The notes: generated by a model not told the origin, from the letters alone. Positions 1-57,540 are shown, numbered from the stretch's first letter. The stretch: DNA of 64,000 bases from Bacteroidota bacterium (GCA_049523215.1 JBEKNC010000008.1:12689-76688), one strand, 5' to 3'. A program made the numbers and translations.

Positions 1-215
1 ATCGTTTGTCCATCGCCCACCGCACCATGGTCGACGATGCTTACTGTTCGTTCTGGAAAGTTTGCTATTTGAATCTCGGGCATAGAAAAAGGTAAGCCGG
101 TAGTGTACGACTTGGGAACAGGTTGTGCCGAAGTTTGAGTGAATACAAGACTATACACTATGGTACAGAGGACTACTTGTATTCGTATAAGAACGGCGTA
201 GGTTTGTTTCATCAT
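1..215 (-). CDS. Glycoside hydrolase family 28 (polygalacturonase-like), N-terminal part; runs off the window start
   Basis: Not in the ORF track. Manual translation from ATG 215/212 (GGAG at 221-224) gives MMKQTYAVLIRIQVVLCTIVYSLVFTQTSAQ...MPEIQIANFPERTVSIVDHGAVGDGQT, a signal peptide followed by the GH28 N-terminal FP..xGAVGDG motif also seen in 16123-17523. Confidence 0.75.
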   Translation of the reverse strand, partial: MMKQTYAVLIRIQVVLCTIVYSLVFTQTSAQPVPKSYTTGLPFSMPEIQIANFPERTVSIVDHGAVGDGQT

Positions 216-224
216 TGATGCTCC

Positions 225-2956: not shown

Positions 2957-3359
2957 CTATGCATGTTCCTCGTACGGCAATAAAGACGGAGTATCCAATA
3001 TTCGGAATCACTATCTATGCAAATAATAGTAATTCTCTTCGATCACGAATAATAATTCCTGTTATGCGCGGCTGCCGATTCCCATGTATCCTTAAGAACA
3101 TCCCACGAAAGCGCCGCCGGCCACACGGAGAGCTTGACCAGTTTCACATTTCCAATAAAAAAAACTTTCCCCAGGTTTATTCATCGATTTGGGATCAAAA
3201 TGTACGTTTACGCCAGCTGAAAGCACTATACTGCATGACTAGTTGCTGGAATCGGGATTAAGCAAACAACGATCAAGCAGTTCTTTCATTACAGGTACCA
3301 TAGTTTTCATTTTACTTTATCAATAAGATGGTGACCACAACCCGAGTATAAAAATATTT

Positions 3360-4910: not shown

Positions 4911-4911
4911 C

Positions 4912-6117
4912 TCATTTTACATTTGGTACTGTCATACATTTTTTTTCTAGTTCAAGAGCCGCAAGAATAAATGGGCCGATCGCCTTAAAGTCATTCGTTC
5001 GTTGTTTCTCATGAATATAATATTCATAGCTTCCATCGCGGTATGGAATTCCACCTAAACCCGCTCCTTGGCATGTATGATGCAAAAAGATTAATCCTTT
5101 CTCATCCACAGTTACCATGGAATCAAGAATTCCCTTAAATGATTTTTGTGCAACTGCCAAATACGATGTATCGAGATATCCTTTGTCGGCGCCTTTTGCA
5201 AACGCATAGACAAACATGCACGATGCGGAGGACTCAAGATAATTCCCTGCACGGCTTCCTTGGTCGAGAACCTGATACCATAATCCTGAATATGGTTCGC
5301 GATACTTCAAGAGCGCCGCAGATTCTCGTTGCAGAATTGCGATGAGTTCAGCACGCTTTGGATAATCCTGTGGAAGATAATCCAACACATCCACGATTGC
5401 CCACATATACCATCCCATTGCCCTGCCCCAAAAGTGCGGCGATACGCCTGTTTCTGGATTTGCCCATTTCTGCTGTTTGCTTTCATCCCATGCATGATAC
5501 AGCAATCCAGTTTTTGGATCACGGGTATGATGTTCTATAAAGATAAATTGATTGGCGATATCATCAAACACAGACGGCTCATTGAACATATGCGCGTACT
5601 CCGCATAAAACGGTTCTGCCATATAAAGACCATCCAGCCACATTTGGTAAGGATAAATCTTTTTATGCCAAAAGCCTCCTTCATTCGTCCGAGGCTGGTT
5701 AGCAATCTGCTTACGCAGAGTATCGGCGGCAATTTTATACTTTTTTTCACCCGTTGCTTTAAAAAGTTCCAGCAGTTGTCTGCCGGTTGCAATATAATCG
5801 GAATTGAAGGAAGAATAATCATAGGTCAGGATGGATCCATCATTCTGCACATAGAGATCCATCTGCTTCTTGATATAGTCGAGGTAGGTTTTATTCTCGG
5901 TGGCAAGATAGACTTGATATACTCCCTGGAGCACTACTCCGCGTTCATAATCCCACCACGCGCTGTAGGGTACACCGGCGTACCGAATAGTATCCGGATG
6001 AGCACGGATAAAGCTATCGACAATCTTTTGAGAGAACCTGTTTTCCTGTGAATTCAGCTGTTGAATGGATGAACAACTGCAGAAAAGTACAAAAGCTCCA
6101 ACAATCCAATGTTTCAT
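4912..6117 (-). CDS. Unsaturated rhamnogalacturonyl hydrolase (GH105, YteR-like); probable lipoprotein
   Basis: WHKKIYPYQMWLDGLYMAEPF, FWGRAMGW and YLESSAS motifs. Start moved to ATG 6117 (upstream AGGAG; signal MKHWIVGAFVLFCSC) because the ORF-track start lies inside a stem-loop. Confidence 0.9.
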   Translation of the reverse strand: MKHWIVGAFVLFCSCSSIQQLNSQENRFSQKIVDSFIRAHPDTIRYAGVPYSAWWDYERGVVLQGVYQVYLATENKTYLDYIKKQMDLYVQNDGSILTYDYSSFNSDYIATGRQLLELFKATGEKKYKIAADTLRKQIANQPRTNEGGFWHKKIYPYQMWLDGLYMAEPFYAEYAHMFNEPSVFDDIANQFIFIEHHTRDPKTGLLYHAWDESKQQKWANPETGVSPHFWGRAMGWYMWAIVDVLDYLPQDYPKRAELIAILQRESAALLKYREPYSGLWYQVLDQGSRAGNYLESSASCMFVYAFAKGADKGYLDTSYLAVAQKSFKGILDSMVTVDEKGLIFLHHTCQGAGLGGIPYRDGSYEYYIHEKQRTNDFKAIGPFILAALELEKKCMTVPNVK

Positions 6118-16069: not shown

Positions 16070-16122
16070 TTGGTCTCCTTGTTACATGATGACAAGTATA
16101 AGTTACATGGGGAACACAAAAA

Positions 16123-17523
16123 TCATTTATTATTTACTTTCACATTGATCATACTCAAATCTTTTACATTCTCAAGAACATTGGGCTCTGCTACATTATT
16201 GAAGGTGCAGTTTTCAATATGCACATTCGTTGCAGGGGATCGGTCATAGGCGCGAACCCAAATACCAAATTTGCTCTTGTCACTTTCAATATTCTTTAAT
16301 TCCACATTCTGTACAAGAGGCGTAAAACTTCCTGCATCTCCTTCTTCATAATAGAAATCAATCTGCATCACGGCATCTGAGACCTGTCCAACCTTGATAT
16401 TCCTGAAATACACATTCTCCACCACTCCGCCACGAATAGAATTCGTCTTAATGCGAAGCATACGGTCGAGATTCGGGCTATCCATCGTATCATTTTCTGC
16501 ATAGACATTGCGTATCCCACCAGAGAGTTCGCTTCCTATCGAGACGCCGCCATGTCCATTCCTCATCCGGCATCCTTGAACAATGATATTGGAACAGGGA
16601 ACATTCACCCGTCGACCATCATTGTTCCGCCCGGATTTTATAGCAATGCAATCATCGCCGGTGTTAAAATAGCAATTCTTGATGAGAACGTCAGTGCATG
16701 ATTCCGGGTCGCAGCCATCATTGTTCGGCCCCAGTCCATCTGTCGTCACACCAATGATTGAAACATTTCTGCATAGTACTGGATTGAGAAACCACATCGG
16801 GGAATCTTTGAATTTCACTCCCTGGACTAATACATTCTTGCACTTGTATGGTTCAAAGAAATTTGGGCGAAGATAGAATCCATCACCAAAGATACGCTCT
16901 GCAACTGGAACGCCCTTTTCCCCCATCTCAAATAATTTCTTGCGCGCAACATTTTGATTGGGCATGCCTGCCACCCAACCGGCTTCTTTCTTTCCTTTCC
17001 AACTCCACCAATTGTCATTTGCTCCTTGTCCATCCAAAACCCCTTCTCCTGTCACAGCGATGTTTTCTTGCTCATACGCATAGATGAGTGGGGAATAATT
17101 CATACACTCGACACCCTCCCAGCGCACAAATACAACAGGAAGGTAATTTTTCGGATCAGTAATGAATTTGATTGTCGCTTCTTTAGAAACATACAGGTTG
17201 ACATTGCTCTTCAAGTGGATGGCGCCTGTAAGATAGATTCCTTTAGGTACCACAACCCTACCGCCGCCTTCGGTATTGCACTTATTAATAGCTTTCTTGA
17301 ATGCCTTGCTGCAATCGGTTTTTCCGTCACCAACTGCACCGAATCTTGTGATATCAAAATCTTTCTGGGGAAAAGTTGGGGGAGAGATTCTTTGTAATAA
17401 TGCCGGGAACGCATCCCATCCTTGCGGAGCGGATTCGGGTTGTTGAGCAACAACAAGAGAAGTTGCAAACAGATAACACAGAACACTTGAAACAGAACTT
17501 CGTAACCCAGAAATCATAGGCAC
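16123..17523 (-). CDS. Polygalacturonase/exo-galacturonidase (GH28)
   Basis: Catalytic motifs PNNDG, GDDCIAIKSG, GHGG and RIKT; signal peptide. Confidence 0.93.
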   Translation of the reverse strand: MPMISGLRSSVSSVLCYLFATSLVVAQQPESAPQGWDAFPALLQRISPPTFPQKDFDITRFGAVGDGKTDCSKAFKKAINKCNTEGGGRVVVPKGIYLTGAIHLKSNVNLYVSKEATIKFITDPKNYLPVVFVRWEGVECMNYSPLIYAYEQENIAVTGEGVLDGQGANDNWWSWKGKKEAGWVAGMPNQNVARKKLFEMGEKGVPVAERIFGDGFYLRPNFFEPYKCKNVLVQGVKFKDSPMWFLNPVLCRNVSIIGVTTDGLGPNNDGCDPESCTDVLIKNCYFNTGDDCIAIKSGRNNDGRRVNVPCSNIIVQGCRMRNGHGGVSIGSELSGGIRNVYAENDTMDSPNLDRMLRIKTNSIRGGVVENVYFRNIKVGQVSDAVMQIDFYYEEGDAGSFTPLVQNVELKNIESDKSKFGIWVRAYDRSPATNVHIENCTFNNVAEPNVLENVKDLSMINVKVNNK

Positions 17524-42084: not shown

Positions 42085-42630
42085 TCAACTCATCGTTGAT
42101 GTTGCTTCCCTTATTGTCTGCTCACACTCTGCACAAAAATTCTTCCCTTTCACATCGATCTCTTCGGCTGAAGTAGAGGAGTGCATGACGCACTCCGGTC
42201 TATGGCAGTGAATAAGTCCGAAGGTATGGCCAAGCTCGTGAACAGCTTCCTTTAATAAGCGAATGTGTTTTAACTCGGGATTCGGATCCAATCCGAAGAG
42301 TTCTTCTCTGAGCCGAAACGAAGAAAGCACAGCAACTTTATCATCTAACTGGGCTTCTCCGAACACATACGTGAACACAGGTACAAAAAGATCCACCGTT
42401 GTTATTCCAATGATTTTCCCTTGATGTGTTGGATAGCTTTTGAGAAGTGCAGCAATGATGGAAGTGGAATTGAATTGGTTACGGTATGAATCAAATGCGA
42501 ACGCCGGATCAACGTAGCTCGATTCTTCGATGGAAACCGATTGTTCAAATGCGCTTGTTAACGGTGCGATAAGCGACGTTAATTCCGCATGATCGACCGG
42601 CCGAATCGGAACGATCAGAATTGACGACAT
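42085..42630 (-). CDS. Archaemetzincin-family zinc metalloprotease (M54)
   Basis: YVFGEA and KEAVHELGHTFGLIHC....CVM...FCAEC (HExxHxxGxxH plus Cys4 zinc finger). Confidence 0.9.
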   Translation of the reverse strand: MSSILIVPIRPVDHAELTSLIAPLTSAFEQSVSIEESSYVDPAFAFDSYRNQFNSTSIIAALLKSYPTHQGKIIGITTVDLFVPVFTYVFGEAQLDDKVAVLSSFRLREELFGLDPNPELKHIRLLKEAVHELGHTFGLIHCHRPECVMHSSTSAEEIDVKGKNFCAECEQTIREATSTMS

Positions 42631-42633
42631 CGC

Positions 42634-43989
42634 TTATGGTCTCTTTAAACCGTACTTGGTGATTTTGTTGTACAGCGTGACGCGATCAATATCGAGAATA
42701 TCCGCCGACCGCGAAATATTCCATCCGCATCGGTGAAGAATCATTTCAATGTGAGCTCGCTCAATCGCCGCAATCGAATCTGCCTGCAGCCCATGCGCTT
42801 TAGATGCTAACTGGAAGGGTAAATCGGTGTGCTGAATTGCCGGCGGCTTTGCAAGCACCATTGCACGTTCCATTACATTTTCCAATTCCCGTACGTTGCC
42901 CGGCCAATCATACTGCACCATAATATCCATTGCATTCGGACTAATCTCAGTGATCGCTTTGTGCATAGCGGCTGCATGTTTATTGCAGAAATACTCAGCA
43001 AGGAATGGAATATCCTGCCGGCGCTCACGCAGCGGGGGAATCACAATAGTAAAAACATTCAGACGGTAATAGAGATCTTCACGAAACGATCCCTCTTTAA
43101 TAGCGGCTTCGAGATCACGATTCGTAGCGCAGATCACGCGAAAATCGCTGGAGATGACTTCGTTTCCGCCGACACGTGTGAATTGCTTCGTCTCGAGAAC
43201 ACGCAATAACTGCACTTGCATTTTTTGGCTGATTGTTCCGATTTCATCGAGAAAGATTGTTCCACCATCAGACAATTCAAATTTTCCCTTTCTGCGAAAC
43301 TGTGCGCCGGTAAATGAACCTTTCTCATGACCAAATAGCTCGCTCTCCAGAAGGCTTTCAGCCATTGCACCGCAATTGACGGCAATGATTGGAAAGTAGC
43401 GACGGCTGCTGTTAGCGTGAATGACCCGCGCAATCAGCTCCTTGCCGGTTCCACTTTCACCGCGCAGCATTACTGTTGTATCGGTTTTAGAAACGGTCTT
43501 TGCCAGCTCTATCACTTTCTGGACTTGCTGACTTTCACCAACGATCTCGTTTGCTTTGACGATATCTGATATCTGTTCGCGAAGTTGGACATTTTCTTCT
43601 ACCAATTTTCTCTGTTTAAGAGCATTTGTGACAAGATGCGAAAGATGTTCCGGATCAATGGGCTTGGTGACATAATCGAACGCACCTTCTTTCAGCGCCT
43701 GTACAGCGCTTTCGACTGAAGCGTATGCCGTGATCATGATAACACTTGTGTTCTTGTCGATCTCCTTGAGGCGTTTCTGAAGATCAAGTCCGCTCATTCC
43801 GGGCATCTTGATATCGAGCAGTGCCAGATCCCATGGACCTTCATTCATTAATTTGAGTGCGTGATTTGCATCTTCCGCCGATTCAACGCGGTACCCATCT
43901 TGCCGGAACCACTTCGTCAGCGATTCACGGACAATCAGTTCATCATCAACAATCATGATGCTTTGTGGTGCAGACTTTTTTTCAGTCAT
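42634..43989 (-). CDS. sigma54-dependent response regulator (NtrC/AtoC family)
   Basis: Receiver (IVDDE, LDIKMP); AAA+ GESGTGKE, ESELFGHEKGSFTGA, FREDLYYRL and WPGNVREL; Fis-type HTH. Confidence 0.95.
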   Translation of the reverse strand: MTEKKSAPQSIMIVDDELIVRESLTKWFRQDGYRVESAEDANHALKLMNEGPWDLALLDIKMPGMSGLDLQKRLKEIDKNTSVIMITAYASVESAVQALKEGAFDYVTKPIDPEHLSHLVTNALKQRKLVEENVQLREQISDIVKANEIVGESQQVQKVIELAKTVSKTDTTVMLRGESGTGKELIARVIHANSSRRYFPIIAVNCGAMAESLLESELFGHEKGSFTGAQFRRKGKFELSDGGTIFLDEIGTISQKMQVQLLRVLETKQFTRVGGNEVISSDFRVICATNRDLEAAIKEGSFREDLYYRLNVFTIVIPPLRERRQDIPFLAEYFCNKHAAAMHKAITEISPNAMDIMVQYDWPGNVRELENVMERAMVLAKPPAIQHTDLPFQLASKAHGLQADSIAAIERAHIEMILHRCGWNISRSADILDIDRVTLYNKITKYGLKRP

Positions 43990-44016
43990 AATTCATGTCC
44001 CTTGATAAAAATTTTT

Positions 44017-45627
44017 TTAACTATGTATCTCTTCATTCGGCAAAGTTTGCCGTGGAAGTGTAATAGTGAATGTCGTGCCCATGCCTTGTTTTGATTCTAC
44101 GGATATTGAACCGCTATGACGCTCGATAATGCCATAGACCACCGAGAGGCCGAGTCCGGTGCCCTTGCCTTCTTTCTTTGTTGTATAAAACGGCTCAAAG
44201 ATATGTGGCATATCTTCTTCATGAATCCCGCTTCCTGTATCGCGCACTGTAATCTGCACTGCATTGAGATATTCAACTTCTTCTACGCGGATATAGAACG
44301 AACCACCGCCGGGCATCGCCTCAACAGCATTGATCTCAAGCGCAAGCAACGCCTCTTCTAATTGGTGCGGATCGCAGTACAGAACAACCTGTTTATCTCC
44401 CATCTCAACGACAGATGTAATATTATTCATTTTCAAGTGATGGTCGATAAGCTTGAAACTTCGCTCGATGATCAACCGCAGATCGGAATCTTTAAACTCG
44501 CCGACTTTCTCCCGCGAGAATAGCAGGAGATTCTTGACGATGTTGCCGCAACGCGCCGTCTCGTCCGCAATGAGCGTAAGCTCGCCGACCATTTCTTGTG
44601 TACTTTCCGCCGACGGAATTTCACGCTCCATTTTTTTCCGCAGCAACTTGGCATATGTAAGGATACCTTCCAGCGGATTATTCAATTCATGCGCAACAGT
44701 GGCAGCAAGGGTACCAAGCGATACCATCTTTTCAATTTGTACCATGTGCTTTTGTGCACGGCGAAGCTCTTCTGTTTTTTCGGCAACACGCTGTTCAAGT
44801 GTTTGTGTCCAAGTAGTCAGTTCTGTCCGTGCGCGTTTTAACTCCTGTGTCATCTGATTAAAGGACATTCCCAACGATCCAATTTCATCACTCATTTGGA
44901 CATCAATACGATAATCGAGATTCCCTTTCACGATTTCCTGAGTCCCAATCACAAGTCTCTTGACAGGAATATTGACCATCCTCCAGATGAAGACAGTAAC
45001 GAAGCCGGTGAGCAGAACGACAAGTGAAAGCGACCCAAGAATTTGTGTACGTTCGAACTGTGCAATATCCTGATCGACATCCTGAAGCGGGATCATGACA
45101 TCAAGAATTCCGAGCACGGTTTGGGAAGAGCTATGCGCATGGCAATCACTTGTGGAACAACTTGCATCATTTCGGATAGGAGTGATGATACCGATAACAC
45201 GATATCCTTTTGGTGAATCGAAAATGCGCTTGAGTGTCGGATCTTTCTGCGGAACAACCGGCTTCCCTGTTGCATGGCAGCCAATGCACGCCTCAGCAGT
45301 CATATCGATATTTTTCCCAACTTCAGCTTCTTGCGTCGAAAATGTAACCATCCCTTTTTTATTTATGATACGTATTCCTTCTATGCGTGGCTCATTTCCA
45401 ATGGTTTTTATAATTTCGTAAATATCCTCCCGCCGATTGAGCAGCATACTGTAACGGGTTGATCGACTAATAAGATCGCTGATATTCGTTGCCGATTGTT
45501 TAGCAGAAGCTATATACTTGCTGGATTGCCAGTCTACAAGAAGCATGGTAAACAGCGTCGTTCCAACCAACACGATCACTGCAATACCGAGAAATAATCG
45601 AAAACCAAGTAAATGGAAAAATCGCAT
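44017..45627 (-). CDS. Sensor histidine kinase with periplasmic c-type haem motifs and HAMP domain
   Basis: TM-periplasmic domain-TM with CIGCH and CSTSDCH; HAMP; AHELNNPL, DTGSGI, PFYTTK and GTGLGL. Confidence 0.92.
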   Translation of the reverse strand: MRFFHLLGFRLFLGIAVIVLVGTTLFTMLLVDWQSSKYIASAKQSATNISDLISRSTRYSMLLNRREDIYEIIKTIGNEPRIEGIRIINKKGMVTFSTQEAEVGKNIDMTAEACIGCHATGKPVVPQKDPTLKRIFDSPKGYRVIGIITPIRNDASCSTSDCHAHSSSQTVLGILDVMIPLQDVDQDIAQFERTQILGSLSLVVLLTGFVTVFIWRMVNIPVKRLVIGTQEIVKGNLDYRIDVQMSDEIGSLGMSFNQMTQELKRARTELTTWTQTLEQRVAEKTEELRRAQKHMVQIEKMVSLGTLAATVAHELNNPLEGILTYAKLLRKKMEREIPSAESTQEMVGELTLIADETARCGNIVKNLLLFSREKVGEFKDSDLRLIIERSFKLIDHHLKMNNITSVVEMGDKQVVLYCDPHQLEEALLALEINAVEAMPGGGSFYIRVEEVEYLNAVQITVRDTGSGIHEEDMPHIFEPFYTTKKEGKGTGLGLSVVYGIIERHSGSISVESKQGMGTTFTITLPRQTLPNEEIHS

Positions 45628-45660
45628 AGTGTTCAAGTTGAATTAATATACAGTTTTTTG

Positions 45661-45675
45661 GCAAGATTTGTGCCA
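45661..45675 (-). promoter_or_regulatory. sigma54 (-24/-12) promoter for the HK-RR-archaemetzincin genes
   Basis: Minus strand TGGCAC-AAATC-TTGC, a perfect match to TGGCAC-N5-TTGC. Confidence 0.8.
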
Positions 45676-45734
45676 ATAACAAACAGGGTTGATAAACTCA
45701 ACAATCTGCGGTAAGAATGGCTTAAAGTCTCAAT

Positions 45735-45774
45735 AAAAAGAAAGCCTCTCCCAAAAAAAGTAATGGGAAAGGCT
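45735..45774 (-). terminator. Intrinsic terminator after the second GcvH-like gene
   Basis: Minus strand AGCCTTTCCCA-loop-TGGGAGAGGCT followed by TTCTTTTT. Confidence 0.7.
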
Positions 45775-45795
45775 GGAAATAGATAGTATTTGAAA

Positions 45796-46608
45796 TTATT
45801 GAGGTAAGTGCACTATCCGATTCACAACTTCTAAGTAGACTTTTGGACCGAGGATGCTTTCGATGCTGTTTACACCAATACCGCCGTCAAACAACGTTGT
45901 CCCTGCTGAAGGGTGGTTATATCGGAAAGCATGTGTAAATGAATGTTCAATGTTTCGCATTGTTCGTTCGATATTCTGCCGCGAATCAGTTGCAGAACTA
46001 AAACTATGAAGTCCTTTCGTCTTTGTGGTAATCTCCATAATCCAACCTTCGCCAAACGGTGACATACCCAGCAAATTCGGTTTTTGCTGCAATGCCGGAT
46101 TAAACTTGCAAATGGTTGCGTCGATGGGAGAACGAAGTGTAATGGCGCCCCCCGGTAAGATAATCCAGCAGAACGGATCATGCCGTCGTATGCTTGATGG
46201 AGCTTTTGAGACGACGATACTGAGTATCGGTTGAAAGAAATTTGCAAGGATGTGATTGATTCCGATTCGATACTTGCCTGTCTCGTTCTCCTGAACCCAA
46301 TAGTGACTGCGATTATACATTCTATCCTGCGGTACTACAACTGCATGTAAACCTTCAAGATAATTCTTCAATGTGTTTCTGAAGAGTGCATCGGCGGTCA
46401 TTGCTTTTTCTTCTATGGGGACAACCGACTCTTCCTCATTGCGAGGATCCATAGTTCCTAATTGCCGTTTCTGGATGGTATTATTGAATTCACAGGACTC
46501 GCAACGAAATTCTTGATCACAAAGTTTAAATCCTGTTACCCCTGCATCCATCCAAACACATCGCAGTTCGCCTTGAGGAATAACACTCTGAGTTGATTTC
46601 TTTTCCAT
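45796..46608 (-). CDS. GcvH-like protein with N-terminal Cys-rich domain, lacking the lipoyl-Lys
   Basis: CVWMDAGV..KLCDQEFRCESC; H-protein fold signatures SHYWV..YRIGI, SPIDA..NPAL..P..L...PFGEGW; C-terminal GTTLFDGG. Confidence 0.8.
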   Translation of the reverse strand: MEKKSTQSVIPQGELRCVWMDAGVTGFKLCDQEFRCESCEFNNTIQKRQLGTMDPRNEEESVVPIEEKAMTADALFRNTLKNYLEGLHAVVVPQDRMYNRSHYWVQENETGKYRIGINHILANFFQPILSIVVSKAPSSIRRHDPFCWIILPGGAITLRSPIDATICKFNPALQQKPNLLGMSPFGEGWIMEITTKTKGLHSFSSATDSRQNIERTMRNIEHSFTHAFRYNHPSAGTTLFDGGIGVNSIESILGPKVYLEVVNRIVHLPQ

Positions 46609-46642
46609 ATTTTTTCTCCTCCAATTTCATGCTTTTAATTTA

Positions 46643-47818
46643 TCAAGCCGAAACATCGATAAAATGTACAACTTCATGTTGAGCAACCCTATGTTCTTCT
46701 TCGTGGTGTTCGGGAAAGATCGGCAAGTACTTGACAGCAAGTCGAAAGATTGCAAATCCTAATGCAACAATCATTAATGTAATCGAGCTCTCAATCGCCG
46801 ATGGAAAATAATTTGCTCCTGCACTTCGTTCTACAGAAGTGATTGCAACATTCAGCCGATTGAACACAAACCCCATAACAACCAATAATGCAGAAACAAA
46901 AAGTCCTCTTCTATTCATTCGCACGCGCGGGCTGATGAGCAGAAGCATCGGGAGAATGACACCTAATCCAATTTCTACCCAATACATCATTCCTTCATAA
47001 TTAAACGTAAAGACATATTGCCAAAGTCTCATCGTATGAATATCTTCAATTTTAAGCACAAGATAGACCGCAAGTGCCACAACGGTCACTTTAGCAATTT
47101 GCGTAAGTATATGTACTTCTATCTCACGATGGAATGCCCGCGAACTCAAGAAAGATTCGATGATCACCATCGCCGGACCGACTGCCATTGCCGATGCAAA
47201 GAAAAGGTATGGCAGGCTGGAAGAGTACCAAAGAGGATACACTTTTTCCGGAATGATAAGAAACAATGATCCAAGTGATGATTGATGGAGTGATGACAGA
47301 ACAACACCGAGAAGAACCATTGGAATGGTGATACTATGGATGATCTTTTGCGGGCGTTCAAAATTTAATTTTTCGAAAATAATCGGACTGAATTCCAAAG
47401 CGAGCACTGTCGTATAGAGCATGACGCACCAGCCAACTTCAAACATGACAGAATGCGGATTCCACATGATGATCGGGTGCCACACATTCCATGGTTTTCC
47501 CAAGTCGAACATCAGTCCTAAAATCACTAAAACATATCCAAGAAATGCAGTTAGAATTGCAGGCCGCAGAATCGGGCGATATCGCTCAAGGTTGAAGAGA
47601 TAGACCGAGGCGGCAATAACAAATCCACCCGCTGCAAGACCGACACCGCATACGACATCAAAACCAACCCACAATCCCCAAGGAAATTTATCGCTGAGGT
47701 TTGTCGCAGTACCAAGTCCCCAGCCAAAACGAATGACCGTGGAGACAACTCCTGCAGCCATAATGACCCAAAACACCGCTGTCCAAAATGTAAGCTTAGA
47801 AAATACTCTCCAAATCAT
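46643..47818 (-). CDS. NrfD/PsrC/HybB-family integral membrane quinone-interacting protein
   Basis: TNLSD.FPWGLW, GVGLAAGG, DLGKPW, SVMFEV, LHQSSLGSL and NRLNV motifs; about 10 TM helices. Confidence 0.9.
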   Translation of the reverse strand: MIWRVFSKLTFWTAVFWVIMAAGVVSTVIRFGWGLGTATNLSDKFPWGLWVGFDVVCGVGLAAGGFVIAASVYLFNLERYRPILRPAILTAFLGYVLVILGLMFDLGKPWNVWHPIIMWNPHSVMFEVGWCVMLYTTVLALEFSPIIFEKLNFERPQKIIHSITIPMVLLGVVLSSLHQSSLGSLFLIIPEKVYPLWYSSSLPYLFFASAMAVGPAMVIIESFLSSRAFHREIEVHILTQIAKVTVVALAVYLVLKIEDIHTMRLWQYVFTFNYEGMMYWVEIGLGVILPMLLLISPRVRMNRRGLFVSALLVVMGFVFNRLNVAITSVERSAGANYFPSAIESSITLMIVALGFAIFRLAVKYLPIFPEHHEEEHRVAQHEVVHFIDVSA

Positions 47819-47833
47819 AACTGTCTCCGTTGC

Positions 47834-48616
47834 CTATTCATAGTGATCCGGAGTACCGTTTTTCTTTTGAGATTCCATCTCCTTCAATTTAAGTTCGAAG
47901 GCTTGGACCTCTTTGCGTCGGTTGGTAATCCACCAAACACCAGACAACAACGTGCTGCCCCAGAAGACATAATTTGGAATCTTTGAGAGAATCTCCCATG
48001 TAAGATTCGGCAAAGGATGATTGGGAAGATTCATTTTCAATCCGAGTTTCTCGAACGATTTATCCGAGATATAGAGAATCGACGTTCCACCCGCTTCACG
48101 AACTCCATAGATAGACGGATAGTACTTACCCGAATCGACATACATTCTTTTTTGCGCTTCTTTGATAAGTTCATCCACAGTGCCAAATGTACGAGCACCC
48201 GTCGGACATGCTTCTGCACAAGCAGGTCTTTCGCCTTTTTCAATGCGCTCATGACACAAATCGCATTTCGTTACTTTCGGATTCAGGCTGTTCCATTGGT
48301 ATTTCGGAACATCGAAAGGACACGCTTGAATACAATACCTGCAGCCCATGCATTTGTCTGCATCATAGACAACAGCACCCGTTTTCGTTTTCTTAAACGC
48401 ACCAACCGGACACACCGAAGCGCACGTAGGTTCTGCACAATGCATGCACATGCGTGGCAGATACGATTCATCGACTTGCAATACGGCTGTGTTTTGAACC
48501 GAGGAAAGGACATGCTGTTCTGAAACAGGATTTCCCCACCGTTCAGCATCAGCGACTTCACAGGCATAACAACCAACACAGAGAGTCGTATCAATCAACA
48601 TTCCATAACCAAACAT
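47834..48616 (-). CDS. HybA/FdnH-like multi-[4Fe-4S] ferredoxin with C-terminal TM anchor
   Basis: CVGCYACEVAD, CMHC..PTC..VCP, CMGCRYC..ACP and CDLC...PAC..ACP; C-terminal TM helix; no twin-arginine signal. Confidence 0.9.
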   Translation of the reverse strand: MFGYGMLIDTTLCVGCYACEVADAERWGNPVSEQHVLSSVQNTAVLQVDESYLPRMCMHCAEPTCASVCPVGAFKKTKTGAVVYDADKCMGCRYCIQACPFDVPKYQWNSLNPKVTKCDLCHERIEKGERPACAEACPTGARTFGTVDELIKEAQKRMYVDSGKYYPSIYGVREAGGTSILYISDKSFEKLGLKMNLPNHPLPNLTWEILSKIPNYVFWGSTLLSGVWWITNRRKEVQAFELKLKEMESQKKNGTPDHYE

Positions 48617-48712
48617 ATCAGCTTCTCCAGAATTTCAGACAACTTTCATAAGTTCACATCTTACATCTCACCTTAATGAGGAGGAGAGTGATCATCGGAG
48701 TCTTGTTGGTAT

Positions 48713-49381
48713 TTATTCTGCCTTCAAAAATTCTTTCTCAAAAGCATTCCATGTGCTTTCATTAAACTGCTCCAGCACTCCATTCAATGGTGCGCCTCCA
48801 TCCAGCATGGTAACGCCTGCGGTTGCCGGTACACCAATTTGTGCTTGCTCTTTTATGAAATCACGGAAGCGGCTGACTTCTTTTCTAAGCCATTTCGCCG
48901 CCTCATCCGCGATGGCAAGTAAACGTAATTCCGGTGAAATGTTTTTGGGAACGATCACGGCAACCCATCCAGCTACATATGGGTCTTGATGAAGCATTTG
49001 GGGAGAAGCAAGCAGTGATTCGTTTACAGTTAATACTGTACCGGATATCGGAGCGGGAATCGAGAGCACCCGATTGCCATGAGCCACAGTGAGAAGTGTG
49101 TCCCCCTTATTCAATTCCTTTTTGAGCGGTGCAACTTCGATTCTGTCAATTGATCCGATGACTTTTTGCGCAAAGTCATCGACACCAACACGTGCTTCAC
49201 CGGCGAATGTAAGCTCGACCCATGTGTGGGCTTTGCTGATAAAGAATCCTTTCGGTAAAAAAAATCGATCTGCCGGTATTTGAGCAGCTGATGGTGCTGC
49301 TTTCCGCTGCTTGGCTCGATCTCGGAGTAGTTCAATTCCAACGCAGAGAAGGATTGTGGCGACAACGAATAAAGCTACCAT
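48713..49381 (-). CDS. Membrane-anchored GcvH-like protein lacking the lipoyl-Lys
   Basis: N-terminal TM helix; HTWV....ARVGVDDFA, APISG.V..VN..L..SP.....DPY..GW; C-terminal GVTMLDGG. Confidence 0.85.
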   Translation of the reverse strand: MVALFVVATILLCVGIELLRDRAKQRKAAPSAAQIPADRFFLPKGFFISKAHTWVELTFAGEARVGVDDFAQKVIGSIDRIEVAPLKKELNKGDTLLTVAHGNRVLSIPAPISGTVLTVNESLLASPQMLHQDPYVAGWVAVIVPKNISPELRLLAIADEAAKWLRKEVSRFRDFIKEQAQIGVPATAGVTMLDGGAPLNGVLEQFNESTWNAFEKEFLKAE

Positions 49382-49480
49382 GATTGTTTCTCCTTAAAAA
49401 ATAAATTTAGATTCCTCAACTTGCTCTTTTGCATATATGCTCGTAGAATATTTCTTATCGAACTTTCCATTATTCATGCT

Positions 49481-49626
49481 CCAATATTTGTGCCAAAGGA
49501 AAAAAAGTTATTACTCTAAGAAAATCATTGATTTCTTACCAATTACGCTAAACAATCCAAATTTGACACTCAACGTCATTCTAATAAGTGGTGAGCATCT
49601 TTACACCGGGTGTTGAAATATTCAAT
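49481..49626 (-). promoter_or_regulatory. sigma54 promoter with IHF-like site and candidate upstream activator site
   Basis: TGGCAC-AAATA-TTGG (49481-49495); AATCAATGATTTT (49521-49533, near WATCAAN4TTR); GTTGA-N5-TCAAT (49612-49626). Confidence 0.65.
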
Positions 49627-49659: not shown

Positions 49660-50940
49660 TTACTTAGAAATGGCCCGACCCATCACTTTCACTTTCAACA
49701 GATCACCGGTTTTAAAATATACCCAACCGACGATGAGCAGCGTCATTGTGCCGCCAAAGAGTACCGATGGTACTGTCCCGAATAATTTTGCTGCTGAACC
49801 TGATTCAAATGCACCAATCTCATTTGATGAGGCGAGGAAAATTCCATTCACGGCCATCACCCGTGCACGCATTTCATCGGGAGTCATCACCTGAAGAATG
49901 GTCGCTCGGATAACCACACTAATGCTATCGAATGCACCGCTCAGGAACAAAGCTGCCACTGAGACCAGCATCCAAGGCGAGACAGCAAAGATCAAAATAC
50001 ACACACCAAATCCTGCAACAGCAATAAGTAAATTCCTCCAGGCATGCTCCATGGGCGAGAAACGCGAAAGCAAAATGAGCATGAGCGTTGCACCAATAGA
50101 TGGAGCGGCGCGCAGTATTCCAAGTCCTTCTGCACCCACTTTTAAAATATCTTGGGCATAGATTGGCAGTATCGCCATCACGCCGCCAAAGAGAATGGAA
50201 AAAAGATCGAGCGAAATTGAATAGAGAATTATTTTTGTGTTGAAAACGAACCGTATGCCTTCCTTAATGCTTGCGACAACACTATCATGCTGAGCAATCT
50301 GGGCAATCGGACGATCTTTGATTTTAGAATAAAGCAGAAAAGATGAACCGACAAGCAGTGTTACAATCAGTAAAGTATTAGCAAAACCGATCCATGTATA
50401 TAGAAATCCGGCTGCAGCAGGACCAAGAATGGCGCCAACTTGCCATGAAGAACTTCCCCATGTTGCAGCATTTTCGAACAATGCAGGTGGAACAAGAATC
50501 CCGCGCAACGACATTGCTGTCGGCGATTGAAATGCACGGCATAATCCAATGACAAATATTGCCCCATAGATTGCAATCAACAATACCGACTGGTGAATCT
50601 GATCCTGCTGTCGAGTAAACAATTGAAGCATCACAGAACTGAGAACGATTCCACCGACACTCCACATCAACACCTTCCGCTTGCTGCTACGATCCGCAAC
50701 ATGGCCTCCATAGAGCGTAAATGAAATGAATGGTATTGCCTCGACAAGTCCGATGAGTCCCAGCGCCAACGGATCGCGAGTAATGCGGTACAGTTCATAG
50801 CCAATGGCAACTTCTTGAATCATCAATGCCATTGTCAATAAAAATGAAGCGGCTATGAGATAACGGAATTCGGGGAATCGAAAAGAAGCATATGGATCAA
50901 TGTTTATGCGGGTATTCTGTTCTGGAATCGGTTTCTTCAT
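49660..50940 (-). CDS. MFS transporter (EntS/MFS_3-like exporter)
   Basis: 12 TM segments; GHVADRSSKR, LDLFSILFGG..A.LP and SNEIGAFESG motifs. Confidence 0.85.
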   Translation of the reverse strand: MKKPIPEQNTRINIDPYASFRFPEFRYLIAASFLLTMALMIQEVAIGYELYRITRDPLALGLIGLVEAIPFISFTLYGGHVADRSSKRKVLMWSVGGIVLSSVMLQLFTRQQDQIHQSVLLIAIYGAIFVIGLCRAFQSPTAMSLRGILVPPALFENAATWGSSSWQVGAILGPAAAGFLYTWIGFANTLLIVTLLVGSSFLLYSKIKDRPIAQIAQHDSVVASIKEGIRFVFNTKIILYSISLDLFSILFGGVMAILPIYAQDILKVGAEGLGILRAAPSIGATLMLILLSRFSPMEHAWRNLLIAVAGFGVCILIFAVSPWMLVSVAALFLSGAFDSISVVIRATILQVMTPDEMRARVMAVNGIFLASSNEIGAFESGSAAKLFGTVPSVLFGGTMTLLIVGWVYFKTGDLLKVKVMGRAISK

Positions 50941-51172
50941 ATATCGTTAAAGCTCTATGCTCCGCAGCAAATGAATACATGAATATACGCTTCGTTCCCC
51001 AACACGACAACACAAGAGAAAGATGCTGTCCTCCGATCTTATTGCCTTTGATAATCTCGAATCCTTAGTGGAATTCTTTCCCCTTTTGTGGAGTTAAAAA
51101 AGTATATACAATTCAGTAGGCAGGGCTATTATAGAGCAAATGTAATTCATATTGTTATTTTTGATTTGAATT

Positions 51173-52111
51173 TTATAAAGTTATCCTCGTTCCCGCTTTG
51201 CCTTCCAACGCACCAAGGAGATGTTCGGGATCGGTAATGGTCACACGCTGCCCGCCTGCCGAAAGAAAATCAAGCGCAGCTTCAATCTTTGGCTTCATAC
51301 TGCCTTCACTAAATTGTCTATCAGCAAGATGCCTTTTTGCTTCTGCGACTGTGCTGATTCGAAGTGCCAGCTGATTAAATTTTTTAAAATTGATATAGAC
51401 CTCGGGCACTTCTGTCGAGATGACAAGATGCTCGATGCCCAATTTTGACGCGAGCAATGCAGACGCACGATCTTTGTCAATCACCGCTTCAATGCCTTTG
51501 ACTTCACCATTTTCAAGTATCACGGGAATTCCGCCGCCGCCTACAGCTATTACGACATTATTATGTTCCAGACAATCCTTTATCACTTCCAGTTCAATGA
51601 TATCTTTTGGTAGAGGAGAAGCAACAACACGGCGATAACCACGAGCAGCATCTTCAACGATACTCCAACTCAATACCCTTCTCTTTTGTTCTGCAACTTC
51701 TTTGGAATAAAACGGACCAATCGGTTTTGTCGGACGTTGAAATGCAGGATCGTTTTTATCTACAACAACTTGTGTGACAACAGTAACAACAGAACGTTTG
51801 ATTCCTTGTTTGCGGAATGCCGTTTGCATGGAATTTTGCAGCATAAAACCGATTTCACCTTGCGTCATGGCGACACACACATCAAGTGGAAGCGTGTACG
51901 TCTGCGATGAGCCGGCCTCTGAACGCAGCAATTGTGCACCGACCTGCGGACCATTGCCATGTGAAACGATCAGCGCATAGCCCCGCGCAACAATTCCTGC
52001 AAGACTTTCGGCGGTGAGTCTAGCGTTTACGAGCTGTTCGGCGATTGTTCCGCGCTGTCCGGCTCGGATGAGCGAGTTTCCGCCGACTGCGACGAGTATG
52101 GAGTTTTTCAC
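51173..52111 (-). CDS. arcC: Carbamate kinase
   Basis: VGGNSL, SHGNGPQVG, PTKPIGPFY, RRVVASP, GGGGIPV, AVIDKD and GSMKPK motifs. Confidence 0.95.
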   Translation of the reverse strand: MKNSILVAVGGNSLIRAGQRGTIAEQLVNARLTAESLAGIVARGYALIVSHGNGPQVGAQLLRSEAGSSQTYTLPLDVCVAMTQGEIGFMLQNSMQTAFRKQGIKRSVVTVVTQVVVDKNDPAFQRPTKPIGPFYSKEVAEQKRRVLSWSIVEDAARGYRRVVASPLPKDIIELEVIKDCLEHNNVVIAVGGGGIPVILENGEVKGIEAVIDKDRASALLASKLGIEHLVISTEVPEVYINFKKFNQLALRISTVAEAKRHLADRQFSEGSMKPKIEAALDFLSAGGQRVTITDPEHLLGALEGKAGTRITL

Positions 52112-53033
52112 GTCCTTTATCTTTCAACAGCGTATACAGAATTGCTTTCTGTGTGTGAAGCCGGTTTTCTGCTTCATCAAATACTACGGACTGAGGTGAA
52201 TCCATCACTTCATCTGTTACTTCCTCTCCGCGGTGTGCCGGCAGGCAGTGCATAAAGATGGCTGTGGGTTTTGCCTGTTTCATTAACTCGGCATCAATTT
52301 GAAATCCTGCAAACGCCTTCATCTTCGTATCGAAATCTGCCTCTTGTCCCATACTGACCCATACGTCTGTGTAAATAACATCAGCGTCATGTACACCTTC
52401 TGATGGATTGCACGAGAGTTCGATCTTTGCTCCTGTGGTTCCCGCAATTTCCATTGCTCGATCTACAACGGTGTAATGAGGCTGTAAACCTGCAGGAGTA
52501 ATCGCAATAAAGTCCATTCCTACTTTTGCTGCCATGAGCATAAGCGAGTGACAGACGTTATTACCATCACCAATCCACGCGAGTTTCTTTCCCTTAAAAG
52601 AGCCGAGGTGTTCATGAATGGTAAGAAAATCACCAACTGCTTGACACGGATGTTCGAAGTCTGTCAGAGCATTGATAACGCTCACCTTTGCGAACTTTGC
52701 AAGATCGTCGATATTCTTCTGCGCAAACGTTCGGATGACAACTGCATCAACCCATCGTTCGAGGTTTTTCGCTATATCATAGATGGATTCGCGTTTGCCC
52801 AGACTAATATCGGCATTGGTCAGATACACTGTGTTGGCACCCAGCTGTTTCATGCCGATCTCAAATGTCACATGCGTGCGCAGTGATTGCTTTTCAAAAA
52901 TCAACGCTACCGATTTACCTTCTAAAGATTTGGCAAACTTCTTTGGATGTGCTTTCATTTTTTTTGAAAGGTCGAGGATTTGCATCAATTCCTTCGTTGA
53001 CCAGTCTGCAATACCGAGGAAATCTCGTTTCAT
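52020..53033 (-). CDS. arcB: Ornithine carbamoyltransferase (ArcB/ArgF) with a basic C-terminal read-through tail
   Basis: FEKQSLRT, HPCQ, GDGNNV, YTDVWVSMG, HCLP and AENRLH motifs; operonic with carbamate kinase. Confidence 0.88.
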   Translation of the reverse strand: MKRDFLGIADWSTKELMQILDLSKKMKAHPKKFAKSLEGKSVALIFEKQSLRTHVTFEIGMKQLGANTVYLTNADISLGKRESIYDIAKNLERWVDAVVIRTFAQKNIDDLAKFAKVSVINALTDFEHPCQAVGDFLTIHEHLGSFKGKKLAWIGDGNNVCHSLMLMAAKVGMDFIAITPAGLQPHYTVVDRAMEIAGTTGAKIELSCNPSEGVHDADVIYTDVWVSMGQEADFDTKMKAFAGFQIDAELMKQAKPTAIFMHCLPAHRGEEVTDEVMDSPQSVVFDEAENRLHTQKAILYTLLKDKGREKLHTRRSRRKLAHPSRTARNNRRTARKR

Positions 53034-56580: not shown

Positions 56581-57540
56581 ATGACAAAATTCAAGCAAAT
56601 AGACCTCAGCGGCGTCAAGACTATTTCTATCAAAGGCCGCAAGAGCAAAGTGACGCCGAACGATTTTGCAATACCGCTCGATGCAAAGAAAGCGAGCTTC
56701 AAGGATTTTGCCGATTCATTGCCGCGCATTCTCATCGGTAACGAATTACGCAATCTCGTGAACGACATCGTCCGCGCTCGCACGAAGACGAAACCTGTCA
56801 TTCTCATGATGGGAGCACACGTCATCAAAGTCGGACTTTCACCGCTCATTGTTGATTTACTCAAACGCGGTGTCATCACGCATGTGGCAATGAACAGTGC
56901 AGCTTCCATCCACGATGTCGAAACGGCGATGTGGGGACATACTTCAGAAGATGTAGCGCTCAATCTGATGGATGGAACATTTGGCATGTCGAAAGAAACA
57001 GGTGACTTTATCAACATCGCACTTGTGAAAGGAATGAATGAATCGACAGCCGGGTACGGCGAAACACTTGCAAAAAAAATTATTGCGATGAAAGGACGAA
57101 ACCGCAGCGTCAGCATTCTTGCAAATTGTTACAAGCTTGATGTTCCGGTTACAGTGCATGCGGCAATTGGTACGGACATCGTTCACCAACAGGCAACGAT
57201 GGATGGCGCGGCAACCGGTGAATTGAGTTTTCGGGATTTCAAAGTGTTCGTGAATTCCGTCAAGGATCTCATCAACGGCGGTGTGGTATTAAACTTCGGT
57301 TCTGCAGTGATCATGCCGGAAGTTTTTCTGAAAGCGCTCACTGTTGCCCGTAATCTTGGCTATAAAGCGAAAGGATTTTCCACTGCCAACTTTGATATGA
57401 TCCGACAGTATCGTCCGCAGATGAATGTTGTTGAACGACCGACACAAAAACACGGACGAGGTTACAATTTTACGGGACATCACGAACTTATGTTCCCATT
57501 GCTTGCCGCAATGATCAAATCTCAGCTTCCTACCAAATGA
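56581..57540 (+). CDS. Deoxyhypusine-synthase-like NAD-binding-fold protein of unknown function
   Basis: MMGAHVIKVG, VTVHAAIGTDI, GSAVIMPEVFLKA and GHHELMFP motifs. Confidence 0.6.
   Translation: MTKFKQIDLSGVKTISIKGRKSKVTPNDFAIPLDAKKASFKDFADSLPRILIGNELRNLVNDIVRARTKTKPVILMMGAHVIKVGLSPLIVDLLKRGVITHVAMNSAASIHDVETAMWGHTSEDVALNLMDGTFGMSKETGDFINIALVKGMNESTAGYGETLAKKIIAMKGRNRSVSILANCYKLDVPVTVHAAIGTDIVHQQATMDGAATGELSFRDFKVFVNSVKDLINGGVVLNFGSAVIMPEVFLKALTVARNLGYKAKGFSTANFDMIRQYRPQMNVVERPTQKHGRGYNFTGHHELMFPLLAAMIKSQLPTK

Follow-up and report, generated by a model that had tools for sequence, protein, structure and literature searches.

A predicted sigma-54-controlled redox-signalling module with lysine-less H-fold proteins and a dispensable Fe-S/NrfD pair in a Bacteroidota bacterium

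Iron-sulphur (Fe-S) proteins paired with NrfD-family membrane subunits make up the HmcB/HmcC core of Desulfovibrio Hmc (also Nhc) and the HybA/HybB pair of E. coli hydrogenase 2. These were the best-scoring named families for two proteins encoded in a 64-kb stretch of DNA from a Bacteroidota bacterium (GCA_049523215.1, JBEKNC010000008.1:12689-76688; the whole stretch is called the window below, and positions are counted from its first letter), where they belong to a cluster of seven genes together with two proteins resembling the glycine cleavage H protein (GcvH), a sensor histidine kinase (HK), an NtrC-type response regulator (RR) and an archaemetzincin-family protease (AMZ). The pair resembles Hmc and Hyb in its four cysteine groups, in the C-terminal transmembrane (TM) helix of the Fe-S protein and in a cofactor-less NrfD subunit with 10 hydrophobic segments. 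It differs from them in the absence of a twin-arginine translocation (Tat) signal, of a partner cytochrome or hydrogenase and of HmcDEF-type subunits, in scoring below all four family cut-offs, and in being flanked by two H-fold proteins without the lipoyl lysine and by a dedicated two-component system.

A comparable two-subunit Fe-S/NrfD set without a molybdopterin subunit is known from the same bacterial class: the Melioribacter roseus genome paper describes the NrfC/NrfD cluster Mros1572/1571, for which its authors proposed, as a proposal only, a role as electron donor to periplasmic multihaem cytochromes (PMC3534657); in the accessible part of that paper, H-fold proteins, a kinase set and a missing signal peptide are unmentioned. 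The two pairs, set side by side by description, may be orthologous. Fe-S and NrfD subunits that do without Tat export have a precedent in SoeABC, which a review describes as predicted to face the N-side with SoeC inverted (PMC8076601); SoeABC includes a molybdopterin subunit, and the NrfD subunit of the window, unlike the proposed SoeC, has the ordinary charge bias.

Concerning the signalling genes, the haem-c PAS/PDC sensors of Geobacter chemoreceptors (GSU0935, 3b42) likewise combine a PDC-type periplasmic fold with a CxxCH motif, but the sensor domain of the window has a second motif (Cx4CH) and is carried on a HAMP kinase, its better fold matches (WalK, KinD, CitA) are haem-free, and its haem is predicted from motifs. 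AtoSC and ZraSR share with the window a HisKA kinase and a REC-AAA+-HTH activator (AtoC/AtoS and ZraR/ZraS were among the best NCBIfam matches), as well as sigma-54 promoters both for the target and for the operon that encodes the regulator, whereas the window proteins score below the cut-offs, possess another sensor domain and have an archaemetzincin translationally coupled to the activator. To our knowledge, archaemetzincins are proteases without a known bacterial role. Literature searches, conducted outside subscription journals, returned no description of this gene combination.

We read the region as one self-contained, sigma-54-controlled envelope redox-signalling module of two operons, with a probability of roughly 45%. 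Shown or directly read are the gene content with its two promoters, a conserved gene order, the missing catalytic subunit and the dispensability of the Fe-S/NrfD pair; the module is most likely a redox-sensing device, with kinase, activator, protease and H-fold pair as its core and the quinone module as an accessory arm. New here are the dispensability of the pair, a modelled contact between one H-fold protein and NrfD, and a charge-based placing of the signal-less Fe-S domain in the periplasm.

Gene content and promoters of the locus

ORF (open reading frame) calls and domain searches placed seven ORFs head-to-tail on the minus strand within 42085-49626 of the window, which bears out the co-oriented seven-gene cluster of a first-pass annotation made from the sequence. 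Operon 1 comprises gcvH-like(TM), the Fe-S gene, nrfD and gcvH-like(Cys4), and operon 2 comprises the HK, RR and AMZ genes. In the order of transcription, they are:

48713..49381, minus strand: GcvH-like(TM), 222 amino acids (aa); GCV_H 1.3e-20; N-terminal TM helix, H-fold barrel, helix, MLDGG loop, C-terminal helix
47834..48616, minus strand: four-cluster Fe-S protein, 260 aa; Fer4_11 3.7e-26; HmcB/HybA/FdnH-like, with a C-terminal TM helix and a conserved WWITNRRxEV tail
46643..47818, minus strand: NrfD-family membrane subunit, 391 aa, 10 hydrophobic segments; PF03916 8.6e-27; closest to HmcC and HybB
45796..46608, minus strand: GcvH-like(Cys4), 270 aa; GCV_H 3.3e-14; C-x12-C-x5-C-x2-C, barrel, long helix, TLFDGG loop, C-terminal helices
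44017..45636, minus strand: sensor histidine kinase (HK); TM, periplasmic PDC/sCache-like domain, TM, HAMP, HisKA, HATPase_c (Pfam)
42634..43989, minus strand: NtrC-type sigma-54 activator (RR); Response_reg 5.1e-33, Sigma54_activat 3e-70, AAA_lid_14 6e-28, HTH_8 5.3e-12
42085..42630, minus strand: archaemetzincin-family Zn protease (AMZ), 181 aa; NF033823 161.8 bits (cut-off 145), Peptidase_M54 5.6e-20

The two H-fold proteins match Pfam GCV_H and have the barrel fold of GcvH, as seen in the structure comparison, which covered GcvH(Cys4): its AF2 model (pLDDT 77.5) showed a confident H-protein barrel behind a low-confidence Cys-rich N-terminus, and in Foldseek this barrel matched solved H-proteins with TMt 0.88-0.92 (1onl_A, E 5.7e-11, TMt 0.88; 3a8k_E, TMt 0.92). 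They differ from GcvH in the replacement of the lipoyl lysine, in the added TM helix or Cys4 motif, and in a C-terminal helical tail with a DGG loop that the alignment showed to be common to both paralogues. An ordinary GcvH of 126 aa is encoded separately in the same genome, and its lipoyl lysine (EAVKAVS) aligned with an asparagine in GcvH(TM) and a glycine in GcvH(Cys4). Among orthologues, lysine occupied the lipoyl column in none of 23 GcvH(Cys4) and in 1 of 25 GcvH(TM) sequences (6/25 when counting lysines within one column), so that the description of both proteins as lipoyl-less, already made on first reading, holds. Public records label them 'glycine cleavage system H protein', a role that is impossible for them because the lipoyl lysine is missing; both also scored below the cut-off of the NCBIfam GcvH model NF002270 (75.8 and 54.1 bits, cut-off 117). 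By charge, the TM helix of GcvH(TM) is predicted to be N-out. In GcvH(Cys4), C17, C30 and C39 were invariant and C36 nearly invariant across 23 sequences, and Pfam searches at E up to 10 gave no match for the Cys4 N-terminus or for either C-terminal tail. A metagenome protein (P0181, 450 aa) had two copies of the CxWMxAG...C...CxxC motif ahead of a single H-fold domain, so that this Cys motif behaves as a repeatable module.

The NrfD subunit matched PF03916 with 95 bits (gathering score 25.8) and possessed no cofactor motifs, which places it in the family, while it remained below the cut-offs of both HmcC (345 bits, cut-off 550) and HybB (305.3 bits, cut-off 450); a sequence search of the PDB gave 0 matches for it. 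The Fe-S protein, which had been labelled a ferredoxin, is indeed an Fe-S protein, but is better described as a four-cluster protein of the HybA/HmcB/FdnH type with a C-terminal TM helix and no Tat signal. It also scored below the cut-offs of HmcB (228.5 bits, cut-off 420) and HybA (194.2 bits, cut-off 263), and its nearest solved relatives in a PDB search were FdnH (3.6e-30) and PsrB (2.7e-28). Fifteen of the cysteines in its four Cys groups were invariant in 24 sequences. The 16th position is Cys in most sequences and Asp in the window, L007 and L009, where one cluster may be Asp-ligated or of the 3Fe type. This Asp is residue 23 (48548-48550), the fourth position of the first cluster motif C-x2-C-x2-C-x3-C, and the other N-termini shown have Cys there.

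The topology of the pair was approached through its charges. In the Fe-S ORF, which cannot be extended further upstream, 12 residues precede the first Cys; in none of the 24 module orthologues was a twin-arginine motif found at the N-terminus, and all start a few residues before the first cluster. Its C-terminal helix is preceded by 0-2 and followed by 3-7 lysines and arginines (K+R) in 21/21 orthologues, which argues for a tail inside and a domain outside. NrfD carries 13-19 K+R on the N-terminal-side loops and 3-7 on the other side in 26/26 orthologues, and a homologue at locus L034 (39% identical), paired with an Fe-S protein that has a Tat signal, showed a bias of the same sign (14 vs 4); this shared bias suggests that NrfD is oriented as usual. 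In solved relatives, the Fe-S-binding face of NrfD is periplasmic, according to the part of the review consulted (PMC8076601). The charge bias would therefore place the Fe-S domain in the periplasm despite the lack of an export signal, which is unexplained.

Between its two hydrophobic segments, the kinase possessed the motifs CIGCH (CxxCH) and CSTSDCH (Cx4CH), both kept in 29/29 orthologues. The earlier description as a haem-c kinase stands for the kinase and its two haem-c motifs, and the haems are read from these motifs alone; with cytochrome c maturation genes present in the genome, HK is predicted to carry covalent c-type haem. An AF2 model of residues 36-200 (pLDDT 79.1) formed a single PDC fold, with the CxxCH in a low-confidence stretch, and in Foldseek it was nearest to the sensor domains of WalK (best), KinD, CitA and DctB, also matching the haem-c sensor GSU0935 (3b42) at E 1.3e-4. 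The activator is of the NtrC type, with REC, AAA+ and Fis-type helix-turn-helix (HTH) domains and a GSFTGA loop read in the sequence; rpoN is present in the genome. It remained below every NCBIfam equivalog cut-off (best AtoC, 470.7 vs 714). The AMZ gene starts 4 nt past the RR stop, and HExxHxxGxxHC...C...CxxC, which combines the zincin motif and a Cys4 zinc site, was found in 28/28 orthologues, assigning the protein to the subfamily and predicting proteolytic activity.

Sigma-54 promoters had been claimed for both transcription units, and matches to the motif were indeed located upstream of HK and gcvH(TM) only. The regulatory features are:

49612..49625, minus strand: TTGA-N5-TCAAC site, candidate enhancer, ~130 nt upstream of the gcvH(TM) -24 element
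49481..49495, minus strand: sigma-54 -24/-12 element TGGCACaaataTTGG, 114 nt upstream of the gcvH(TM) start
45743..45774, minus strand: terminator-like hairpin with an 11-bp stem and U run after gcvH-like(Cys4), separating the transcription units
45688..45702, no strand assigned: perfect palindrome GTTGA-N5-TCAAC, candidate activator site, ~26 nt upstream of the HK -24 element
45661..45675, minus strand: sigma-54 -24/-12 element TGGCACaaatcTTGC, 39 nt upstream of the HK start

The pattern TGGCAC-N5-TTG[CG] had exactly two matches in the window on both strands (expected 0.28; 3/100 shuffles reach 2), and TTGA-N5-TCAAC had 6 against 1.1 expected. Three further exact TTGA-N5-TCAAC sites outside the two promoter regions, at 56851-56864, 44264-44277 and 4162-4175, were not near any sigma-54-like site in the window. 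Across loci, the sigma-54 pattern lay upstream of gcvH(TM) in 16/30 and of HK in 8/29, compared to 0 or 1 for the other five gene families, and TTGA-N5-TCAA occurred within 300 nt upstream of gcvH(TM) in 9/30 and of HK in 9/29, compared to 0-3 of 24-32 loci for the other genes. Among 56 sigma-54-like sites in the genome, only the two of the module had both TTGA-N5-TCAA within 250 nt upstream and a downstream ORF, so that the predicted regulon is the module itself. The hairpin folded at -20.2 kcal/mol (z -4.85, 0/200 shuffles as good) and was unlisted by a simple terminator scan.

Conservation of the module and loss of the Fe-S/NrfD cassette

A GcvH(Cys4) profile run against a 401-genome sample of the phylum identified full-length relatives in 20 genomes at E<1e-36, and five more genomes were confirmed by synteny. 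Seventeen of 20 fetched regions possessed all seven genes in the same order; of the other three, one was cut by a contig end, L027 had no downstream kinase set and L034 was a variant. Counts restricted to loci with enough flank agreed with the co-occurrence that had been claimed for these genes. In genomes, GcvH(TM) lay upstream of GcvH(Cys4) in 28/28 loci, Fe-S and NrfD upstream in 22/28, and HK, RR and AMZ downstream in 24/26; the corresponding values for metagenome loci were 27/29, 23/29 and 25/31. The metagenome contigs with the module spanned a GC content of 0.38-0.74. At E 1e-30, the Cys4-type H-fold profile matched 502 representative clusters, and the few source names were Ignavibacteriales, Bacteroidota and one Acidobacteriota metagenome-assembled genome. 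Clustering of flank ORFs revealed no further conserved flank gene, with no other family in more than ~3 loci besides shadow ORFs.

Several loci departed from this layout. In the L034 variant (L034:1177-8481, G158), an Fe-S protein with an RRAFLK Tat signal, an NrfD and a 12-CxxCH protein stood in a row, followed by a second kinase, a receiver-domain ORF (267 aa, labelled RR) and a 386-aa ORF, all upstream of the usual GcvH(Cys4)-HK-RR. In the 386-aa ORF, a hydrophobic helix at the N-terminus is combined with a receiver-like stretch and with a C-terminal part that resembles GcvH(TM). This layout was also found in metagenome loci L108 and L110. At L020 (G290), a second diverged copy of the set was present in the same region (62-5295 and 15349-16880), with a GcvH(TM)-GcvH(Cys4) pair without Fe-S/NrfD and with HK-AMZ-RR in an altered order. 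An atlas search returned only GCV_H clusters, including one of 1046 members labelled mostly Thermodesulfobacteriota. Upstream of the module on the same strand, the window (49660-53033) encoded a major facilitator superfamily transporter, EntS-like in NCBIfam at a score under the cut-off, together with an ORF of the amino-acid kinase family and an ornithine/aspartate carbamoyltransferase, whose ORFs overlap by ~90 nt; these upstream neighbours were conserved in the closest relatives only.

The Fe-S and NrfD genes were absent from five related loci, where they behave as one unit:

46613..48709, no strand assigned: Fe-S + NrfD cassette, insertion/deletion unit, absent in L004, L005, L006, L008 and L011

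In the cassette-less loci, gcvH(TM) and gcvH(Cys4) were ~50 bp apart and the other five genes were intact, with proteins in L004, L005, L006 and L008 that were 89-98% identical to those of the window. DNA homology to the cassette-less relatives ended just past the gcvH(TM) stop and resumed at the gcvH(Cys4) start, describing a clean intergenic indel. With the window NrfD as single query, no match was found anywhere in the five cassette-less genomes. Their H-fold genes contained no stops and gave dN/dS of 0.10-0.23 against the window (both genes, 4 relatives) and, for GcvH(TM), of 0.14 against L011; the two genes are thus under purifying selection without the cassette, as judged from these substitution rates. 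Both HK haem motifs were also kept in the cassette-less relatives. The Fe-S/NrfD pair is therefore dispensable and accessory. The first-pass annotation had read it as a possible quinone redox sensor or electron conduit; it is part of the conserved locus but not the centre of the module, as five related genomes possess it neither at the locus nor elsewhere, with the other five genes intact.

In a tree of HK+RR+AMZ (FastTree, 12 taxa), the cassette-bearing L007, L010, L030, L022, L025 and L028 fell outside the clade of the window, and the cassette-less L011 was sister to the cassette-bearing L010 (support 0.998); supports inside the window's own clade were low (0.39-0.50). With cassette-bearing outgroups around two cassette-less lineages, the cassette is ancestral and was lost at least twice. 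A gain by transfer in the window lineage was considered and is unlikely, as the identity of the cassette proteins to their L007, L009 and L010 counterparts (82-85%) lies in the range also seen for HK (82-84%) and GcvH(TM) (78-81%), and the outgroups bear the cassette.

Contigs from RNA libraries (four runs from three studies, mostly 90-95% alike) covered the five core genes and left the Fe-S/NrfD bins almost uncovered, and one of them joined 46613 to 48709, bridging the two H-fold genes and skipping the cassette. Since the contigs are mostly 90-95% alike, the sampled populations are mostly cassette-less relatives, and the data are silent on the expression of the window's cassette; DNA contamination is possible in such libraries, and assembled contigs cannot show transcript starts or ends. 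The cassette-less form was found in RNA libraries labelled peat and wetland metagenome.

Search for a catalytic partner in the genome

The module had been described as devoid of a molybdopterin, NiFe or multihaem catalytic subunit, and no conserved gene of this kind was found in the loci clustered. No catalytic subunit was detected in the window cluster, in the other fetched loci or, for the molybdopterin and NiFe classes, elsewhere in the genome. The genome encoded a single PF03916 protein and a single Fer4_11 protein, both in the module. Its only molybdopterin-family match was a 559-aa NuoG-like ORF followed by a NuoH-like ORF, and its NiFe hydrogenases had small subunits without Tat signals, located beside HdrA/MvhD-like genes. 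It had also been suggested to search the genome for an orphan Tat-exported catalytic subunit sharing the promoter motif, and this search found none. Thus, neither of the two outcomes that had been named as contradicting the module, a catalytic subunit located elsewhere and a lack of co-occurrence of the genes, was encountered.

TatC is present in the genome. A strict scan of all genome ORFs, whose pattern is narrow and misses weaker signals such as that of the Rieske protein of the C1 cluster described below, gave one convincing Tat candidate (C16:55053-56459, 468 aa), which we take to be a DUF362-like protein with a sorting tail of the type IX secretion system type. Its C-terminal ~100 residues matched dozens of ORFs per genome in relatives. 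As a possible carrier of the Fe-S protein it was rejected, because full-length relatives occurred in 2/5 cassette-less genomes and in none of the other 3, without tracking the cassette.

Other redox genes were located outside the window, on two contigs. The region G000:C1:332000-349000 (L117) contained a cluster of multihaem cytochromes with 4 to 14 CxxCH each, beside a cytochrome c assembly gene; its members include a cytochrome b561 fusion, a NapC/NirT-type protein, a Rieske protein with cytochrome b, and MtrC/MtrF-like domains, and the cluster looks like an extracellular-electron-transfer set. The region G000:C14:97800-111300 contained two loci for NiFe hydrogenases that carry no Tat signal, with HdrA-like, MvhD-like and Etf-like ORFs next to them. 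There, one of the large subunits was split into the adjacent ORFs 109158-109901 and 109910-110461, which could reflect a frameshift or a recoded codon.

Proposed function and competing readings

A link between an H-fold protein and NrfD had been proposed on first reading, and a three-chain complex model (NrfD, Fe-S protein and GcvH(TM), with a custom alignment per chain) lent it support. The GcvH(TM)-NrfD pair reached an ipSAE of 0.70 (0.70, 0.70 and 0.72 in the runs), compared to 0.00 for the best of 3 controls; in a benchmark, this mark was reached by 58/80 solved complexes and by 2/110 mismatched pairs, counts that hold only roughly for input with custom alignments and three chains. The model runs agreed in at least 52% of contacts, and partner pLDDT was at least 74. 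Confident contacts joined residues 1-21 and 41 of GcvH(TM) to residues 311-327, 336-339, 11-12, 48-53, 227, 278, 386 and 388 of NrfD, with the TM helix of GcvH(TM) packed on NrfD helix 9. The modelled N-terminus of GcvH(TM) lay at an NrfD loop assigned to the periplasm and its residue 41 at the NrfD C-terminal tail, in agreement with an N-out, C-in anchor and with the charge bias of both proteins. The model thus supports binding of GcvH(TM) to NrfD. The other roles suggested on first reading, the pair as a quinone redox sensor, the H-fold proteins as adaptors and the protease as a tuner of the response, are putative.

The mechanism that we propose is as follows. The kinase would read the periplasmic redox state through two c-type haems in its PDC-fold sensor domain and phosphorylate the NtrC-type activator, which would bind the TTGA-N5-TCAA sites and drive two promoters, that of its own operon (HK-RR-AMZ) and that of gcvH(TM)-FeS-nrfD-gcvH(Cys4). 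The NrfD subunit would bind menaquinone, and the four-cluster Fe-S protein would wire it to a periplasmic haem partner. As the kinase sensor domain is the sole haem protein encoded in the module, the Fe-S/NrfD pair may either poise or report the quinone pool to the sensor, or be its regulated electron outlet. GcvH(TM) would place its N-terminal helix against NrfD helix 9 and hold its cofactor-less H-fold domain at the cytoplasmic face, where it would form, with the soluble Cys4 paralogue, a docking or regulatory arm. The Fe-S/NrfD pair would then be an accessory arm, dropped in some lineages, through which the system is connected to the menaquinone pool.

Several points weigh against this reading. 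The quinone pair is encoded in the regulated operon, away from the kinase, and a role as effector fits this equally well. Haem, Fe-S clusters and binding are all predicted, from motifs or from the model. An export signal is missing from the Fe-S protein in all 24 module orthologues, and the way in which it would get to the kinase sensor domain is unexplained. Among the contacts listed for GcvH(TM) in the complex model, none involves the H-fold domain itself and none the Fe-S chain, and TM-helix packing can be over-predicted in such models. Moreover, the GcvH(TM) helix is conserved in L011, which has long been without NrfD, so that docking on NrfD is not its sole role. Concerning the promoters, the HK palindrome lies unusually close to its -24 element for an enhancer, at ~26 nt, and the strict sigma-54 pattern was found at only 16/30 gcvH(TM) and 8/29 HK loci.

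The main rival explanation, a possible one that we nevertheless rate as well below even, is that the Fe-S/NrfD pair is a stand-alone quinol:periplasmic-cytochrome oxidoreductase, or works in reverse, serving unlinked multihaem cytochromes and merely switched on by the two-component system, with the H-fold proteins as regulators or assembly factors outside sensing. The location of the pair in the regulated operon suits it, as do the donor role proposed for the M. roseus pair in the accessible part of its genome paper (PMC3534657), the C1 cluster of 4- to 14-haem cytochromes (CbcL-like, NapC/NirT-like, Rieske/cytochrome b, MtrC-like), and the L034 variant, with its row of Tat-signal Fe-S protein, NrfD and 12-CxxCH protein. 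However, no cytochrome gene was linked to the signal-less form in any clustered locus, and the C1 cytochromes come with their own modules for quinol oxidation. Moreover, the two H-fold genes are always found together with the kinase set, even where the pair is missing, and GcvH(TM) is predicted to bind NrfD.

A bolder form of the sensing model, which we regard as unlikely, would make the H-fold proteins the transducers of a new kind of respiratory-state sensor: GcvH(TM) would be a true third subunit of an NrfCD complex without catalytic subunit and would report its state across the membrane to the Cys4 paralogue and to the kinase and activator, the archaemetzincin would process one of the partners, and the Fe-S protein would reach the periplasm without an N-terminal signal, perhaps with its invariant C-terminal helix and the RR in its tail as a guide.

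It is also conceivable, and in our view decidedly unlikely, that the H-fold pair regulates the kinase alone, with the quinone pair as an unrelated passenger inserted between the H-fold genes. YycH and YycI, membrane accessory proteins of the kinase WalK, provide the analogy, and WalK was the best fold match of the HK sensor domain. The H-fold pair remains with HK-RR-AMZ without Fe-S/NrfD in 5/11 genome loci and in further metagenome loci, under purifying selection, and the RNA-library contigs of cassette-less relatives cover the core genes, one bridging both H-fold genes. Nevertheless, the cassette is located at the same place or directly upstream in 22/28 and 23/29 evaluable loci across a GC range of 0.38-0.74, which is too constant for a passenger; where a locus has GcvH(TM) in two copies, the cassette is mostly present too, and the modelled docking of GcvH(TM) on NrfD also speaks for a connection.

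An arrangement like that of SoeABC, in which the signal-less Fe-S domain would face the cytoplasm beside the H-fold proteins and exchange electrons between menaquinone and the Cys4 domain of GcvH(Cys4), appears improbable. It would account for the finding that none of the 24 Fe-S orthologues of the module has a Tat or Sec signal, while there is a divergent paralogue with RRAFLK; the remaining products of the operon lie in the cytoplasm or face it, the sole clear Tat-signal protein of the strict scan is unrelated, and the N-side-facing SoeABC with its inverted SoeC sets a precedent, as far as the consulted part of the review goes (PMC8076601). Such a pair would, however, need the opposite charge bias and is therefore disfavoured: the NrfD bias of 13-19 vs 3-7 in 26/26 orthologues has the same sign as in the L034 homologue with its Tat-signal partner (14 vs 4), the K+R flanking the C-terminal Fe-S helix (0-2 before, 3-7 after, 21/21) put the domain outside, and the complex model had no contact between GcvH(TM) and the Fe-S chain.

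That a catalytic subunit exists and is encoded elsewhere, as the likeness of the signal-less Fe-S protein to FdnH, DmsB and PsrB (which leave the cytoplasm together with a partner that bears the Tat signal) would suggest, is scarcely credible and largely refuted for the known classes, given that the only molybdopterin-family match is NuoG-like, both NiFe hydrogenases are without Tat signals, the motif pair occurs at no further promoter of the genome, no locus has a conserved extra gene, and the sole Tat-signal candidate, present in 2/5 cassette-less genomes, does not track the cassette.

The module gives a testable context to archaemetzincins, to a cofactor-less H-fold family, to a sensor kinase predicted to bear haem and to Fe-S/NrfD pairs without partner. 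Its signal-less but apparently periplasmic Fe-S protein poses a small problem in protein export. Finally, the coexistence of near-identical populations with and without the quinone pair is a natural experiment, and a comparison of the two forms could separate the role of the pair from that of the signalling core.

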